A stretch of DNA of 64,000 nt from Dehalococcoidales bacterium (lineage in GTDB: Bacteria > Chloroflexota > Dehalococcoidia > Dehalococcoidales > RBG-16-60-22), in assembly GCA_034429595.1 (NCBI GenBank), contig DAOUGB010000068.1:11067-75066 (forward strand), given 5' to 3'. Position 1 is the stretch's first letter. Each line of letters starts with the position of its first letter. Of the stretch, positions 27,712-49,589 are shown piece by piece. The translations under genes were made by a program, and so were the position numbers. The notes under the pieces are model-generated. The model worked only from the letters and a program-made list of their open reading frames with translations. It did not search any database and had not been told where the DNA came from.

Positions 27712-30700
27712 TCACCATTCGGTATAAATGAGATTATCCATCCACGGTAGCCTGATAATACTTATTGTCCAATCCAACTTATCGAGCAGAATATCATGTG
27801 TCTGGCGTTCCACCTGCACCAGCCAGTCACCATTACGGAGCATTAATACTCCCCGTCGTTGGAGGAAGGCAACCTGGAAACCCTCGATGGAGATATTACC
27901 CAACGCCGGCCAGTTCCGGATAACCGACTGTAAGAGGTTTTCTGCCTCCAGCGACTCTGGCTCGGATATTTCAAAATCACGCGCGATGGGTTCCGCAAGT
28001 CTCCTGCCGCAGATGACCTTATTAAGCGGCAATTCATGTTCGGGAGTTTCCAGAGAGCCGTCCACCAGATACTGCAATAAGTGGACCGCCCTTTCGCTCG
28101 CCACGGAGTTTATAAAAAGCCCTTCCTGCACCAGACTGACACTCTCAAAAAACCGGTTTAAAAAAGGCCAGCATATCACCAGCCCGGCGTTGTGAATATA
28201 TATCTCATCGGAAGGTTTTATGGTTTCGCTACGGTAGGCAACAAGATGCCGCTTTTCCGCTTTCCGTTCTTGGAAATTGCTGCCATACATGCCACCGCTA
28301 GATGCCCCTACTCTGCTCACACCGTGAGATGCGATTTTCAGCATCTCGCCATCAAGGTTCTGTCCTTTTACGAGTACCGGCTTTATTCTCTTATCTGCCG
28401 GCCTGCCAGGAATCCCGTTATTTAACGAAGGAACACTAAGAGAATTCGAGGAACGATTGAGCCGATATTGCCACTCCTCAACAGTAGCGACTTCATTCTC
28501 TTCATTCTCTTCATTCTCTGCGCTCTCCAGGCTATATTTGGCTGCCTCAGCGCGGCGCGAGTTTAAACCGGCGAGAGTATCAGTAGTCTTTATCCGTGAT
28601 TCTATCTTCCCTGTCACGGCGCTTTCATCTTCTCCGGTAAATACAGTCTTTTGTCCTGTATCTACCAAGCCAGTATCCGTAAGATTTGCTTGGGCCTTTA
28701 CCCGCAACTCCGTTTTCCCGGCTACAGCGTTTTTATCCTCGCCGATAAAGACGGCCCTTTGTCCGGCATCCGGCAAACCTTTATCCGTGAGGCTTGAACG
28801 AGTTTTCACCGGTGATTCCATCTTCCCGGCCACGACGTTTTTATCTTCTCCGGTAAATGCGACCATTCGGCCAGCATCCGGCAAACCTTTATCCACAAAG
28901 TTTTCTTTTAAGAGTCTGGCCCGCTTCGTTAAGTTCTTACTCCCCGGCTGCCCCGTCTCCGGCGTATAATGCGGCGTTATCGCTTCCGGTTCCTGACCTC
29001 TTACTTTGCGGGCTTGCTGCCGCTTTATACTGCCATGTGCTGTTCCGAGCGCTACGCTCATTTCATGCTGCAACTTCCGGAGCCGGTCCCTATACTTAAA
29101 TACTTCTTTATCCGTAAGAGACTGGACCAATCTTGCCGGCCCGTTCAGCGCTTCTTTTTCAGGATATGGTAAGGCTAAAAGCTGTTCCAGCAAGCCCAGA
29201 ACCTCATCGCAGTCTTTGGCGAGTTCCGCTCTTATCTTATCTTCAGATGATATTTGGGCGCTTGATTCAGTGCCGCTTTTTGGCGATATTTCCTTTTTCC
29301 CCTGCTGTACGGGATGATAAGAGCGAATACGCCGCCGGAGTACGGCCATTAGCGACGCTACCTCCCAGAGTAATTTCTCTTTTTCCCGCGTCATGTCCAC
29401 AATCCCATCCGGCACCGCCTGTAATTCCTCTCTGTATTGATTACCGCCAGAGTATTTCTCGGATTGAGAAAGATTATCTTTACATGACAACGCATTAACC
29501 GCTGCTTCCAGATGCCGCAGCAAGGCCACTTTTTCAGCAGATGATATTCCGTACCGTGCCGTGCACAATCTCTCTACTAATGCCACGAACCGGGATTGGC
29601 TTTCAGGTGATACGCCGCTACCGGATAATGCTTGCATTATTTTCCCCAGTGCTCCCAGACAACGTTTTACCAAAGGCGAACTTGCCGCCATTGATGCTCC
29701 GGAAACGTGACCAGGGGCGAACGGCACCTGATTATCTCCGGTCACGGCAGGTTCAGATTGACACACCGGTGGCTCCGCCGGCGGAGAATTAAATACATCA
29801 TCTTCGATTAGCTTTAAGAGTGTGCCTATCGCTCTTTTAAGTGCACTAATGTTCCTCTTTGACCTGTTTTCCGGACCGTTCCTTTGCTTGCGCAGTTCGG
29901 CGATTATCCGGGTCAACAAAGGCTTCAACTCGCTGGCGGCGTTTCCCGGCTCATATAGCTGCATTGAGGTCTCCGCATCAGACGGAAGACCTTCCGGTAA
30001 TTGTTCCAGAGTTGATGATGGCTTTATCATCTCCCCCCCAGTCTGCCCCCTAAAAGATATCCCGGATACCAAAGCCGATAACGCCGCTTTGAAATTTAAC
30101 AAAAACTCAAGTTCGCGGGTTGTTTCTCCTTGTTCATATAGCTGCACCAGGTCTTCAGCCCCAGTTGAAAGTTTTTCCGTCAATTGTTCCAGAGTCGGTG
30201 ATTGCTGTATTATCTCCTTTGCAGCTGTCCCATCAAAAGACGTCCCGGATGCCGAGGCTGGTAATCCGTCCTTTAAATCCGGTAAAGATTCCAGTTCGCG
30301 GTCAGCTTCTCCTTGTTCATATAGCTGTTTCAGGTCTTCAGTCCCAGTTGAAAGTTTTTCCGTCAATTGCCCTAAGGCCGATGATTGCTGTATCCTCTCC
30401 TTTGCAGTTTCCCTCTTGGAAGATGCTTCTGCTACCAAAGCTGATAACGCATTTTTTAAATAGAGTCCGTGCTTCCCCAGCCTTTCCGCCGATTTCATGA
30501 CAGACCGGGCAAGCGCCTGGTACGCTACCCCCAGCCGCCGGGAGAGACGTACGAGCAGTTCACCATTAAAGCGGGACAAATCCGCTTCCCCTGATGCTGC
30601 CGTAATGATTAAGGGAAAAACTTCACGCCACAAAGCCAGCTTGATTCCGTTGTTTGAATACTTCATCCGGATATCCGCCAGTAAAAAGGCCCTGATAAAA

Positions 30701-31317
30701 ACCGAAATAAACCGGCGGATAGCAGGATTGGAATGCCGGAGGATGATTGCCGCCACTGACAGGAGAGCACGGTCAGAAAATTGGTAAACCAGCCGTTTCA
30801 GCTTTGCCGCATCATCAACAAGCCGGATAATAACGTCCGCCAATTCATCCGGCGCTACGGCTACCAGGCTGTGGAGATTTTCATCGAGCTCTCCTGCGTC
30901 CATCTCGTTCGCCCACCAGGGCAGGGTGCCCGTGTTGATGAAATGCTCAAACAACTCCAGTTGCGAGATATACGCGGGCACGGCGGTAATATCTTTCACC
31001 GGCTTTCCGGCGGGTGTACCTTTACCTTCCAGGCAGGCTATCTCTATCTTCAATAAATCCCTTAGGCGGGCTGCGGTCCTGGCGGGTAACTCCGTTTCCA
31101 GTTCATCAATAGGAATAGCGCCGACATCGATACACAGCGAATCGAAACGATGGATGACGCCGGAAGTTGCGACCTCGTTACAGCACGACTCAATAACCGG
31201 GACAACGTTCTCACGGTAGATTCTGCTGACCGTATCCTGTATTCGTTGCGCCGTTGCCGGAGACGGTAAACCCAGTTCTAAAACCTGGCCTTTAATAACA
31301 TGCCGTGGTGTGGTCAC
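27712..31317 (-). CDS. eCIS tape-measure-like protein (Afp14/Pvc14 class), repeat-rich
   Basis: 1201 aa. The N-terminus (HVIKGQVLELG...FDSLCIDVGAIPIDELE) and C-terminus (IYIHNAGLVICWPFLNRFFESVSLV...RAVHLLQYLVDG) match my recollection of CIS tape-measure proteins. The central region is low-complexity with tandem repeats. Confidence 0.65.
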   Translation of the reverse strand: MTTPRHVIKGQVLELGLPSPATAQRIQDTVSRIYRENVVPVIESCCNEVATSGVIHRFDSLCIDVGAIPIDELETELPARTAARLRDLLKIEIACLEGKGTPAGKPVKDITAVPAYISQLELFEHFINTGTLPWWANEMDAGELDENLHSLVAVAPDELADVIIRLVDDAAKLKRLVYQFSDRALLSVAAIILRHSNPAIRRFISVFIRAFLLADIRMKYSNNGIKLALWREVFPLIITAASGEADLSRFNGELLVRLSRRLGVAYQALARSVMKSAERLGKHGLYLKNALSALVAEASSKRETAKERIQQSSALGQLTEKLSTGTEDLKQLYEQGEADRELESLPDLKDGLPASASGTSFDGTAAKEIIQQSPTLEQLTEKLSTGAEDLVQLYEQGETTRELEFLLNFKAALSALVSGISFRGQTGGEMIKPSSTLEQLPEGLPSDAETSMQLYEPGNAASELKPLLTRIIAELRKQRNGPENRSKRNISALKRAIGTLLKLIEDDVFNSPPAEPPVCQSEPAVTGDNQVPFAPGHVSGASMAASSPLVKRCLGALGKIMQALSGSGVSPESQSRFVALVERLCTARYGISSAEKVALLRHLEAAVNALSCKDNLSQSEKYSGGNQYREELQAVPDGIVDMTREKEKLLWEVASLMAVLRRRIRSYHPVQQGKKEISPKSGTESSAQISSEDKIRAELAKDCDEVLGLLEQLLALPYPEKEALNGPARLVQSLTDKEVFKYRDRLRKLQHEMSVALGTAHGSIKRQQARKVRGQEPEAITPHYTPETGQPGSKNLTKRARLLKENFVDKGLPDAGRMVAFTGEDKNVVAGKMESPVKTRSSLTDKGLPDAGQRAVFIGEDKNAVAGKTELRVKAQANLTDTGLVDTGQKTVFTGEDESAVTGKIESRIKTTDTLAGLNSRRAEAAKYSLESAENEENEENEVATVEEWQYRLNRSSNSLSVPSLNNGIPGRPADKRIKPVLVKGQNLDGEMLKIASHGVSRVGASSGGMYGSNFQERKAEKRHLVAYRSETIKPSDEIYIHNAGLVICWPFLNRFFESVSLVQEGLFINSVASERAVHLLQYLVDGSLETPEHELPLNKVICGRRLAEPIARDFEISEPESLEAENLLQSVIRNWPALGNISIEGFQVAFLQRRGVLMLRNGDWLVQVERQTHDILLDKLDWTISIIRLPWMDNLIYTEW

Positions 31318-31344
31318 CGCGCTTACCTTTCCGGCAGATGCGAG

Positions 31345-48884: not shown

Positions 48885-48944
48885 ATGGTCTTCCTCCTGT
48901 ATATCGTTATTCTTGGTGCGTTTTACCTTTGAGAGCAGGCAACC

Positions 48945-49589
48945 CTACTTTCCCGGTTGCCCGGATGTGTCAAACCTAGTCCTCTCACCGGCATTTTCAG
49001 CCCCTTGGGAATCAATTAATTTTAATTCTCTCGCTTTCACCTCCTTAGTCTTTTCCGGTGTATGTACATCAACGCTTAACGTTATCTGATAGTTAACGGC
49101 AACTCTGGGCTTGACACCCATCGCCTGCCAGAAAGGCCCCATATTGAAATGCTCCGGCTGCAGCGCCTCTGCCCTGATTATCGTGGCCGTGCCGTCTTTA
49201 AGGCTACCATAGAGCATCTCCCGCGGGAAACTGCGTCCCTTCAGCAGAGCTTTCATGGCCTCACCAAGCAGACGGTGCTCTTCCAGCATGTGATTCGGCG
49301 AGCTCTCACTCGTCCAGACCGTCATGATATAAAAGCACTCAATCTGGGTCTGGGGTTTCTTTACAACGCCGTCATCCGCTCTCCCTTTTTCCCACGTCCA
49401 TTCCGTGCTACGGAGTTCCAGATTCTCCAGGACCATGTAAAGAAAAAGATTAATTGCCGGCAGTTTTACCCAAGCCGGCGGGAATTTACCATCCGGCGGG
49501 TCAAAACTAATCGCCACCGATTTTAATAAATCAGGGTCAAGGTTCTGCTTCAGCAGGTTTTCCAGGGTTTTATCCAGGTCGCCAAACAT
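48945..49589 (-). CDS. DUF4255 tail terminator/cap protein (Afp16/Pvc16 class)
   Basis: The N-terminus LDKTLENLLKQNL...ISFDPPDG...LPAINLFLYMVLEN matches the DUF4255 pattern. It is the first gene of the operon. Confidence 0.8.
   Translation of the reverse strand: MFGDLDKTLENLLKQNLDPDLLKSVAISFDPPDGKFPPAWVKLPAINLFLYMVLENLELRSTEWTWEKGRADDGVVKKPQTQIECFYIMTVWTSESSPNHMLEEHRLLGEAMKALLKGRSFPREMLYGSLKDGTATIIRAEALQPEHFNMGPFWQAMGVKPRVAVNYQITLSVDVHTPEKTKEVKARELKLIDSQGAENAGERTRFDTSGQPGK

Follow-up and report, generated by a model that had tools for sequence, protein, structure and literature searches.

What kind of machine is encoded by a 17-gene operon of phage-tail-like genes in a Dehalococcoidales bacterium (Chloroflexota), and what would it deliver? 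The operon lies at positions 27712-49589 of a 64,000-nucleotide (nt) stretch of contig DAOUGB010000068.1 (assembly GCA_034429595.1, positions 11,067 to 75,066), referred to here as the window. An initial annotation, made from the letters alone, had described it as a complete extracellular contractile injection system (eCIS) with non-canonical content. Our analysis leaves hardly any doubt that the region encodes a contractile injection system (CIS). The cluster is complete and apparently intact, and it is probably functional. The best overall explanation, which we consider reasonably probable, is a CIS of the type represented by AlgoCIS of Algoriphagus machipongonensis and by the thylakoid-anchored CIS (tCIS) of Anabaena sp. 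PCC 7120, forming a free particle that would inject leader-tagged cargo.

The cluster comprises 17 consecutive minus-strand open reading frames (ORFs) running from 49589 down to 27712, with spacings of -4 to 121 nt and three 4-nt overlaps; the ORFs, strand and coordinates first reported for this operon were borne out. The genes are as follows, with lengths in amino acids (aa) and the supporting matches in brackets.

48945..49589, minus strand: Cis16 cap or tail terminator, single-domain short form, 214 aa (Pfam Pvc16_N/DUF4255, 8.8e-27)
46950..48884, minus strand: Cis2 contractile sheath, 644 aa (Pfam Phage_sheath_1C, 8.7e-13; Phage_sheath_1, 1.2e-7)
46456..46917, minus strand: Cis1 inner tube, 153 aa (Pfam Phage_T4_gp19, 1.3e-33)
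45852..46334, minus strand: Cis5, second gp19-like tube protein, 160 aa (Pfam Phage_T4_gp19, 5.6e-30)
45682..45849, minus strand: Cis6-type small protein between Cis5 and Cis7, 55 aa (Pfam DUF5908, 1.4e-18, full length)
44981..45658, minus strand: Cis7 tube initiator with LysM-like C-terminus, 225 aa (Pfam CIS_tube PF19266, 3.2e-45)
43178..44977, minus strand: Cis8 VgrG-like spike, 599 aa (Pfam Phage_base_V, 3.8e-22; Phage_GPD, 4.8e-8)
42706..43158, minus strand: Cis9 gp25-like sheath initiator, 150 aa (Pfam GPW_gp25, 2e-25)
38924..42694, minus strand: Cis11 long baseplate protein, 1256 aa (Pfam Baseplate_J, 6.5e-7)
38181..38927, minus strand: Cis13-type short tail fibre, 248 aa, or 246 aa by public annotation (profile search against PDB, PHROG)
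36058..38184, minus strand: Cis12 baseplate wedge (gp6/gp7-like), short form, 708 aa (PDB matches)
35583..36029, minus strand: Cis10 PAAR-like spike tip, 148 aa (Pfam CIS_spike_tip PF19267, 1.6e-27, full length)
34747..35586, minus strand: candidate cargo 1, 279 aa, or 274 aa by public annotation (shared leader, slot position)
33311..34714, minus strand: candidate cargo 2, 467 aa (shared leader, slot position)
31937..33295, minus strand: Cis15 AAA+ ATPase, 452 aa (Pfam AAA, 1.5e-28; WHD)
31345..31920, minus strand: DUF4157/eCIS_core protein, 191 aa (Pfam eCIS_core, 9.2e-25)
27712..31317, minus strand: Cis14 tape measure, 1201 aa (Pfam CIS_TMP PF19268, 4.4e-107, two stretches)

The family calls made earlier for DUF4255, sheath, two gp19 proteins, DUF5908, gp25 and DUF4157 all passed Pfam profile searches, and every structural module of the proposed Afp/PVC-type phage-tail-like particle was matched by profiles. 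The region thus contains the parts of the Afp/PVC-like superfamily (the "eCIS" of dbeCIS and eCIStem), namely sheath and gp19 tube; gp25, Baseplate_J and an Afp12-like wedge; and a VgrG spike with a PAAR-like tip. Furthermore, the markers that set CIS apart from phage tails were all present (Pvc16_N cap, AAA+ ATPase, DUF4157, CIS_TMP, CIS_tube, CIS_spike_tip and DUF5908), and the first four of these also distinguish it from the secretion system of type VI (T6SS). In PDB searches, the Afp11, Pvc11, Afp12 and Pvc12 chains were all matched by the baseplate proteins. Cis12, which has no Pfam domain, matched All3315 (5.7e-114), Alg12 (6.9e-97), Pvc12 (5.8e-33) and Afp12 (1.3e-25), and the Cis16 cap matched the N-terminal domains of Afp16 (5e-9) and Pvc16 (3e-8). 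The flanks were scanned over 38 ORFs, mostly of at least 120 aa, within the 64-kb window; none encoded capsid, portal, terminase, integrase, TssJLM-type domains or lysis genes, in agreement with the initial view that phage head and T6SS membrane genes are missing. Additionally, a megablast of 42700-49600 (cap to gp25) returned zero matches in 50,697 phage records.

Several individual assignments were refined. A PAAR-type tip, previously reported as missing, is encoded by the 148-aa ORF at 35583-36029. This ORF was one of four said to lack a recognisable family; another, of 248 aa, is the fibre, and only the 279- and 467-aa proteins kept that status. The count of 14 families plus four unassigned proteins also gave 18 for 17 genes, with the 248-aa ORF entered twice. 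The LysM tube initiator was upheld as a tube initiator by its CIS_tube match, while the C-terminal LysM match was sub-threshold (E 0.037, 14.4 bits vs a cut-off of 20.9). Gene position and the tCIS/AlgoCIS structures suggest that Cis5 forms the tube-initiator layer (PMC8894136), and the Cis6-type protein may be the spike plug, judging from its position and size relative to Alg6/Cis6 (PMC8894135, PMC8894136). The Walker motifs of Cis15 are intact (Walker A GPPGTGKT at 251, Walker B ILFFDE at 305), and the DUF4157 protein contains an HExxH motif (HELAH at residue 132). The tape-measure gene carries internal tandem repeats (183 nt x2.4 at 30014-30461 and 108 nt x3 at 28585-28907), and such duplications fit with the evolution of tape length.

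In PDB searches with the sheath, Cis11 and Cis12, the top-ranked chains came from AlgoCIS and Anabaena tCIS, with those of Afp/Pvc and Streptomyces scoring far lower. The sheath matched AlgoCIS Alg2 at 4.9e-134 and Anabaena All3325 at 1.7e-130, compared with about 1e-66 for Afp3/Pvc3 and 1.7e-46 for the Streptomyces sheath. Cis11 matched All3317 (9e-106) and Alg11 (2.6e-104), with residues 12-214 aligned to Alg11 10-215 and residues 752-1163 to Alg11 584-992. A middle segment of about 500 aa sits where cage domain IV of Alg11 (278-643) lies, its homology to the cage being only partly shown. The length of Cis11 (1256 aa) can be compared with 1050 aa for Alg11 and 1231 aa for All3317. On these similarities, the CIS probably belongs to the AlgoCIS/tCIS lineage (lineage Ib-like, the Ib type also comprising MAC and T6SSiv).

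The window sequence is present on three metagenome contigs. The nearest genome is a metagenome-assembled genome (MAG) labelled Chloroflexi bacterium RBG_13_51_52, whose sheath is 85% identical, and a Dehalococcoidales MAG holds a near-syntenic cluster (loci L015/L020). An Algoriphagus MAG encodes a sheath with 57% identity to the one in the window. Cis1 is 92-99% identical to its counterparts in the related loci L004 (from a Chloroflexi MAG), L018 and L020, the Cis10 tip is 76-87% identical to those of L018 and L020, and the DUF4157 protein 49-58% identical to those of the same two loci.

The 279- and 467-aa genes occupy the slot between tip and ATPase, two genes from the DUF4157 gene, and the Cis15 gene directly follows the slot. 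The leaders of the two proteins share 49% identity over the first ~51 residues (E 3e-11), with no other similarity between the proteins, and the leader of ~50-70 aa has the consensus F-x-F-x-D-[NS]-R-[PS]-x-A-A-x-Q-R-K. A hidden Markov model (HMM) trained on six leaders found three untrained slot proteins of L018 (E 1.2e-12, 2.1e-11 and 8.4e-7). The slot holds proteins of 279 and 467 aa in the window, 224, 368 and 366 aa in L018, and 449 and 380 aa in L020, the leader alone being common, and the structural proteins of these three loci are 54-99% identical over their full length. By computed hydropathy and charge the leaders are hydrophilic and basic, and residues 1-78 of the 467-aa protein are predicted to be disordered (predicted local distance difference test, pLDDT, below 50). 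Toxin signals of eCIS have been described as hydrophilic, basic N-termini (PMC11297309). In AlgoCIS, cargo carries system-specific loading sequences, and cargo with such a leader is loaded by the AAA+ protein Alg15, an orthologue of Cis15 (bioRxiv 10.64898/2026.05.27.728243). By analogy with experiments on Alg15 and Pvc15, Cis15 may be the cargo loader (bioRxiv 10.64898/2026.05.27.728243; PMC11495950).

The 279- and 467-aa proteins are likely to be loaded cargo, because they share a leader, the slot varies in content, a link to DUF4157 exists, homologues occur in CIS clusters and Cis15 is intact. One distant relative of the 467-aa protein (P0064) combines the leader, then DUF4157, then the 467-type core. 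No other leader-bearing genes were found in the window. The leader HMM did not match the DUF4157 protein of the window, and the by-eye similarity of its R-x-T-E-Q-A-K-R-Q stretch was not counted as evidence. No immunity gene adjoins either cargo gene, the gaps being 32 and 15 nt. In L018, the DUF4157 core protein (17710-19065, 451 aa) is 58% identical to the window 191-aa protein over its first ~184 residues, and the rest is an added C-terminal domain; therefore, the same core gene exists with and without an effector-like extension.

The 467-aa protein begins with the leader (residues 1-68, 34511-34714); an all-alpha body and a conserved core of ~110 residues (~320-430, 33425-33757) come after it. 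The core contains the invariant motifs SG-x-SG (SGPSG), ARLV and HHSY[HD]E[IV]M, and its invariant residues are, in order, P, G-x-S-G, L, H-H-x-Y-x-E-x-M, L and D. When 1.84 billion proteins were searched with a profile of the protein, 142 representatives scored E <= 1e-3. Homologues occupy the same slot of the Dehalococcoidales cluster (L015/L020) and the effector end of an unrelated CIS cluster (L016/L017). In many proteins of 600-2600 aa, the core lies at the extreme C-terminus, and eCIS_core/DUF4157 is found upstream of it in 8 of the 15 distant relatives scanned. An architecture of DUF4157 followed by an effector has been reported for eCIS-associated toxins (PMC8213781). The 467-aa protein gave no Pfam, NCBIfam, PHROG or PDB hit, and a 25-sequence core profile found nothing in PDB below E 0.4. 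Judging from these sequence patterns, the protein is probably an effector, with an uncharacterised and probably enzymatic core. More tentatively, the core could be an undescribed enzymatic effector domain delivered by CIS across several phyla, behind DUF4157 or a bare leader, with the leader as a portable, sequence-defined tag read by Cis15; we would put this joint proposal at somewhat under even chances. If true, a tag of this kind would run counter to the prevailing opinion, in which the loading signals of eCIS lack any conserved sequence. The HHSYHE core itself is found again after the DUF4157 cargo marker in proteins of distant organisms.

Two other settings of the 467-aa family were observed. 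In the unrelated cluster from JGI metagenomes (L016 1-17500 and L017), the homologue lies downstream of an eCIS_core gene and is followed by PKD and SNase-like genes, a GH108 endolysin and a gene transfer agent (GTA)-type holin, a linked lysis module that is missing in the window. In Thalassomonas viridans (L014, CP059733.1, 10001-11452), a full-length homologue without the leader adjoins IS66-family transposase genes, near a gene with a Collar domain (fibre-like), and no CIS core genes were found within 10 kb. Therefore, the effector core also travels outside CIS clusters.

The 279-aa protein has the shared leader, a 40-residue Ser/Thr-rich low-complexity linker and a C-terminal region without detectable relatives (ORFan). 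It gave no Pfam, NCBIfam, PHROG or PDB hit, and no homologue was found among 5.8e9 proteins.

The 248-aa ORF is a short tail fibre by profile comparison, with an N-terminal baseplate anchor, a GNxGIGT stalk motif and a C-terminal beta-sandwich knob. A six-sequence profile matched the stalk repeat of the Bdellovibrio fibre bd2133 in PDB (6.6e-8), the N-terminal baseplate-binding segment (4-47) of Anabaena Cis13, All3316 (E 0.0088) and, weakly, AfpX13 (0.1); a PHROG tail fibre family also matches the ORF (8.7e-4). The position of its gene between the two baseplate genes, which the initial annotation had noted correctly and considered unusual, is not unusual, because Anabaena and five related loci (L004, L005, L006, L018 and L020) have the same order, Cis11, fibre, Cis12. 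In Anabaena, this order is all3317 (Cis11), all3316 (Cis13) and all3315 (Cis12) (PMC8894136). An AlphaFold2 model predicts a six-stranded beta-sandwich at residues 127-225 (pLDDT 60-86), for which Foldseek gave weak matches to H-type lectins and to the tip of the R1 pyocin fibre (probability 0.95-0.99, E 0.02-0.07). The Pfam H_lectin profile did not match the fibre tip. The lectin-like tip is thus a lead, not a result.

With a tip present, the fibre in its normal place for the lineage, and the two proteins of no known family in the expected effector position behind a common leader, little is left of the non-canonical content first described. The cluster is a further member of a structurally solved lineage, not a non-canonical system. 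The AlgoCIS/tCIS-type lineage is thereby extended into uncultured, metabolically anaerobe-like Chloroflexota, a phylum in which the CIS observed so far belong only to an unrelated cytoplasmic lineage.

On which cell would such a particle act? A free particle acting on another cell is favoured because no anchoring features were found and the fibre has a globular end. None of the 19 proteins of the block (the 17 described above and the two encoded upstream, listed below) has a transmembrane (TM) segment on Kyte-Doolittle analysis, where the 19-residue mean never exceeded 1.6; the highest value, 1.60, belongs to an amphipathic segment of Cis11. The three anchoring features of tCIS, a Cis13 TM helix, a Cis12 extension and a Cis19 crown, are all absent. 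We lean slightly towards an extracellular mode.

In the mechanism that we propose, the baseplate would first assemble around the spike, and the 1201-aa tape measure would then set a long tube. The AlgoCIS ratio of 0.229 nm particle length per tape-measure residue (bioRxiv 10.64898/2026.05.27.728243) extrapolates to a particle of ~260-275 nm, about twice the length of AlgoCIS. The Cis15 ATPase would recognise the basic disordered leader of the 279- and 467-aa proteins, and maybe the DUF4157 protein too, and feed them unfolded into the lumen. The finished particle would have no membrane anchor, and it would most likely leave the producer when that cell lyses. The fibre's lectin-like knob could then bind a surface glycan of the target, followed by contraction and injection of the cargo.

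Several points weigh against this explanation or parts of it. The fibre model has a mean pLDDT of only 49.5, which makes the fold of the tip a low-confidence call, and no Foldseek hit to the tip reached E <= 1e-3. For the 467-aa protein, the AlphaFold2 model, made from a 7-sequence alignment, was poor (pLDDT 54) and Foldseek found nothing in PDB below E 4.5; neither a fold nor an activity could be deduced. The lineage placement is based on ranked similarity scores, not on a reference tree. No homologue of the cap adaptor (Cis16B/Alg16B) was found; all ORFs of the block are accounted for, and the 279- and 467-aa proteins gave no hit at E <= 1 in PDB, where the Alg16B and Cis16B chains are deposited. 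The adaptor is required for correct assembly of AlgoCIS and is described as a feature of many such systems, not as universal (PMC8894135); its gene could lie elsewhere in the genome or be too diverged for detection. No holin or endolysin was found in or beside the cluster in the window; the L016 cluster, by contrast, carries GH108 and a holin. All Chloroflexota CIS that have been imaged to date are cytoplasmic and belong to lineage IId (PMC12998442), and the clade of the present system holds the extracellular AlgoCIS, the thylakoid-anchored tCIS and the membrane-attached T6SSiv (PMC8894135, PMC12998442). Authors working on this clade warn that the mode of action is unreadable from sequence (PMC12998442). 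The term "extracellular" is therefore retained as the favoured mode, in view of the lack of known anchors and the fibre with its lectin-like tip, and is not a property that sequence can prove in this lineage. The earlier remark that eCIS function is unstudied in this host context needs a similar qualification: the cytoplasmic CIS of Roseiflexus (Chloroflexota) was imaged in 2026 (PMC12998442), while its lineage (IId) and lifestyle do differ.

The alternative that survives best, although we regard it as unlikely, is a CIS that works in the cytoplasm, as in Streptomyces and Roseiflexus; its particles would stay free in the producer and fire inward under stress, leading to regulated cell death or differentiation. 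The unanchored, intracellular state of the Chloroflexota CIS imaged to date (PMC12998442) is in its favour. Neither a lysis cassette nor a membrane anchor was found, no immunity gene stands next to a cargo gene, and a SARP-type regulator controls the block. In actinomycetes, regulators of the SARP family typically control development and secondary metabolism. However, the sheath is much nearer to AlgoCIS/tCIS (~1e-130) than to Streptomyces (1.7e-46), and the locus encodes a fibre with a globular, lectin-like C-terminal domain that is kept in five related loci. To our knowledge, the Streptomyces CIS has no fibres. The intracellular location is in itself not diagnostic, since AlgoCIS particles also appear cytoplasmic until lysis (PMC8894135).

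A second alternative concerns the 279-aa protein, which might be a divergent structural part, for example the missing cap adaptor Cis16B, and not cargo. The sizes are alike, the Cis16B of AlgoCIS having 284 aa and an immunoglobulin (Ig)-like N-terminal domain, and residues 78-110 of the 279-aa protein gave a sub-threshold match to the Ig domain Big_6 (E 0.0046, 17.6 bits vs a cut-off of 27.6). No other adaptor was found, and the cap has the short single-domain form that goes with an adaptor in AlgoCIS. On the other hand, no similarity to the Alg16B/Cis16B chains was seen at E <= 1, and L018 and L020 have no homologue of the 279-aa protein despite structural proteins that are 54-97% identical. 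The protein also bears the same leader as the effector-like 467-aa protein and contains the 40-residue Ser/Thr-rich linker described above. A structural role is accordingly improbable, and we continue to treat both slot proteins as candidate cargo.

Attachment to a membrane, as in Anabaena tCIS or Amoebophilus T6SSiv, with action on contact or after the envelope is shed, is still less probable. The nearest solved relatives include Anabaena tCIS, the fibre gene stands at the position of Anabaena cis13, the membrane anchor, and the mode is not readable from sequence (PMC12998442). However, the fibre lacks a TM helix, whereas All3316 has one at 122-154; Cis12 has 708 aa vs 1335 aa in All3315, and the 610-1100 extension is missing. 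No Cis19 crown was detected when the unassigned proteins were compared with all 7b5h chains (nothing at E <= 1), no block protein has a predicted TM segment, and the host is not a thylakoid-bearing cyanobacterium. A T6SS or anchored system was rejected on this lack of TM segments and tCIS-specific parts.

Finally, a set of tail genes belonging to a defective prophage, or an R-type tailocin, for which the sheath, tube, gp25, Baseplate_J and VgrG common to myovirus tails and the attachment (att)-like repeats flanking the block beside a tRNA gene could speak, was rejected as very improbable given the full set of CIS-specific markers, the lack of a megablast match among the phage records, and the lack of capsid, portal, terminase, integrase and lysis genes in the scanned ORFs of the window.

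The conserved unit exceeds the 17 genes and comprises a SARP-type regulator, a 75-aa ORF and the operon; two copies of a 56-nt repeat enclose it. The features that surround the operon are as follows.

49625..49852, minus strand: 75-aa ORF, 35 nt from the cap gene on its upstream side (annotated as a gene in public contigs; 79% identical in L004)
50062..51111, minus strand: SARP-type regulator with Trans_reg_C, BTAD and TPR (Pfam BTAD, 2.8e-21; Trans_reg_C, 3.7e-6)
27576..27631, plus strand: left 56-nt direct repeat, 81 nt past the stop codon of the tape-measure gene
51721..51776, plus strand: right 56-nt direct repeat, 95% identical to the left, 610 nt upstream of the SARP start codon

The regulator is 82% identical in L004, where synteny starts exactly at the SARP gene, and an association of BTAD regulators with adjacent eCIS operons is known (PMC8213781). 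The 75-aa protein, which starts with MGQYNSFIVKIW and runs on to RGYIQHV, had no Pfam, NCBIfam or PHROG match. A terminator-like hairpin was found at 50052-50038. Promoter matches upstream of the operon were no commoner than chance, and Rfam detected only tRNA, with no riboswitch or leader RNA upstream of the operon.

A diverged third copy of the 56-nt repeat lies at 23584-23639, and a tRNA-Ala(CGC) gene at 20682-20757. The last 14 nt of the repeat correspond to the tRNA-Ala 3' end, exactly in one copy and with one mismatch in the other, a count that 0 of 100 shuffles reached. A metagenome scan for the repeat gave no exact match. The arrangement looks like a tandem array of islands at a tRNA-Ala att site, and the SARP gene, 75-aa ORF and 17 genes behave as a transferable block; tRNA-linked integration of eCIS loci has been reported (PMC8213781). 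Against this, no integrase was found in the window, and the mobility of the island is therefore a historical inference only, from an event that is probably old.

The genes flanking the block are metabolic and regulatory, including acetyl-CoA synthetase, a solute symporter, lactate-utilisation proteins, fumarase, CoA transferases, thiolase and dehydrogenases, along with two-component systems, GreA, radical S-adenosylmethionine (SAM) enzymes and methyltransferases. The tRNA and the CIS block are separated by a low-GC segment (20800-27400; 42-47% vs 50-57% in its neighbours), which contains a class I methyltransferase, two paralogous spore-photoproduct-lyase-like radical SAM genes (22102-23277, plus strand; 24078-25250, minus strand) and a further radical SAM gene (26362-27372). 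An N6_N4 DNA methylase ORF (25247-25915) overlaps a ParB_N fragment ORF (25893-26198), possibly as one frameshift-split gene. This segment may be a DNA-modification or repair island. Just beyond the right repeat, a divergent histidine kinase with seven-transmembrane (7TM) and PAS domains (52017-54119) is not conserved beside the L004 cluster and therefore probably lies outside the CIS regulon.

CIS have been engineered as programmable protein-delivery devices, for which cargo loading and targeting are now the bottlenecks. The window and its close relatives form a natural comparison set, in which a near-constant machine is combined with two to three unrelated slot proteins that carry the same N-terminal tag. 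This set defines a loading signal by sequence and points to new effector domains. The general picture of CIS is unchanged by these results.

Of the known systems, AlgoCIS (lineage Ib; PDB 7adz, 7aeb; PMC8894135) came first or second among the PDB matches of the sheath, Cis11 and Cis12. In both systems the sheath is a single protein, the cap is short with one domain, a Cis6 plug gene is present, and Cis11 is long, with extra sequence inserted at the position of the cage; both also have a DUF4157 protein, an AAA+ loader, a pair of (here putative) cargo proteins with a common disordered N-terminal loading sequence, and no membrane anchor. Unlike AlgoCIS, the present system showed no Alg16B homologue and has a Cis13-type short fibre instead of the Ig-like Alg19, and its slot cargo lacks the DUF4157 that Cgo1 and Cgo2 contain. 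Its tape measure is 2.3 times longer (1201 vs 526 aa in Alg14), and its Cis12 is shorter (708 vs 933 aa). The hosts also differ, a marine Bacteroidota in the case of AlgoCIS and here a Chloroflexota bacterium with anaerobe-type metabolism.

The tCIS of Anabaena (PDB 7b5h, 7b5i; PMC8894136) was the top PDB match for Cis11 and Cis12 and the second for the sheath. The order Cis11, Cis13 fibre, Cis12 is shared with it, and the N-terminus of the fibre aligns to All3316 4-47. In contrast to tCIS, the fibre ends in a beta-sandwich knob and not in a C-terminal TM helix, Cis12 has no membrane-contacting extension, and neither a Cis19 crown nor a second cap protein (Cis16B) was found.

With the lineage Ia systems Afp (Serratia) and PVC (Photorhabdus), the same core is shared, with equivalents of Afp1/5, 2-4, 6, 7, 8, 9, 10, 11, 12, 13, 14, 15 and 16, as is, by our reading, cargo loading that depends on an N-terminal signal and the ATPase (PMC11495950). 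The differences from Afp/PVC include one sheath gene vs three, a cap gene that comes first and not last, and the ATPase, DUF4157 and tape-measure genes at the 3' end. Moreover, Cis11 is much longer, the cap is short, a DUF4157 core gene is present, and the sheath similarity is only ~1e-66.

Like the cytoplasmic CIS of Streptomyces, Roseiflexus and other Chloroflexota/Deinococcota (lineage IId; PMC12998442, PMC10020575), the system is unanchored and has no linked lysis genes, and it shares its phylum with Roseiflexus. Unlike them, it has a remote sheath (1.7e-46 to Streptomyces vs 4.9e-134 to Alg2) and a fibre gene, and its gene order and the architecture of Cis11 and Cis12 follow the Ib-type systems.

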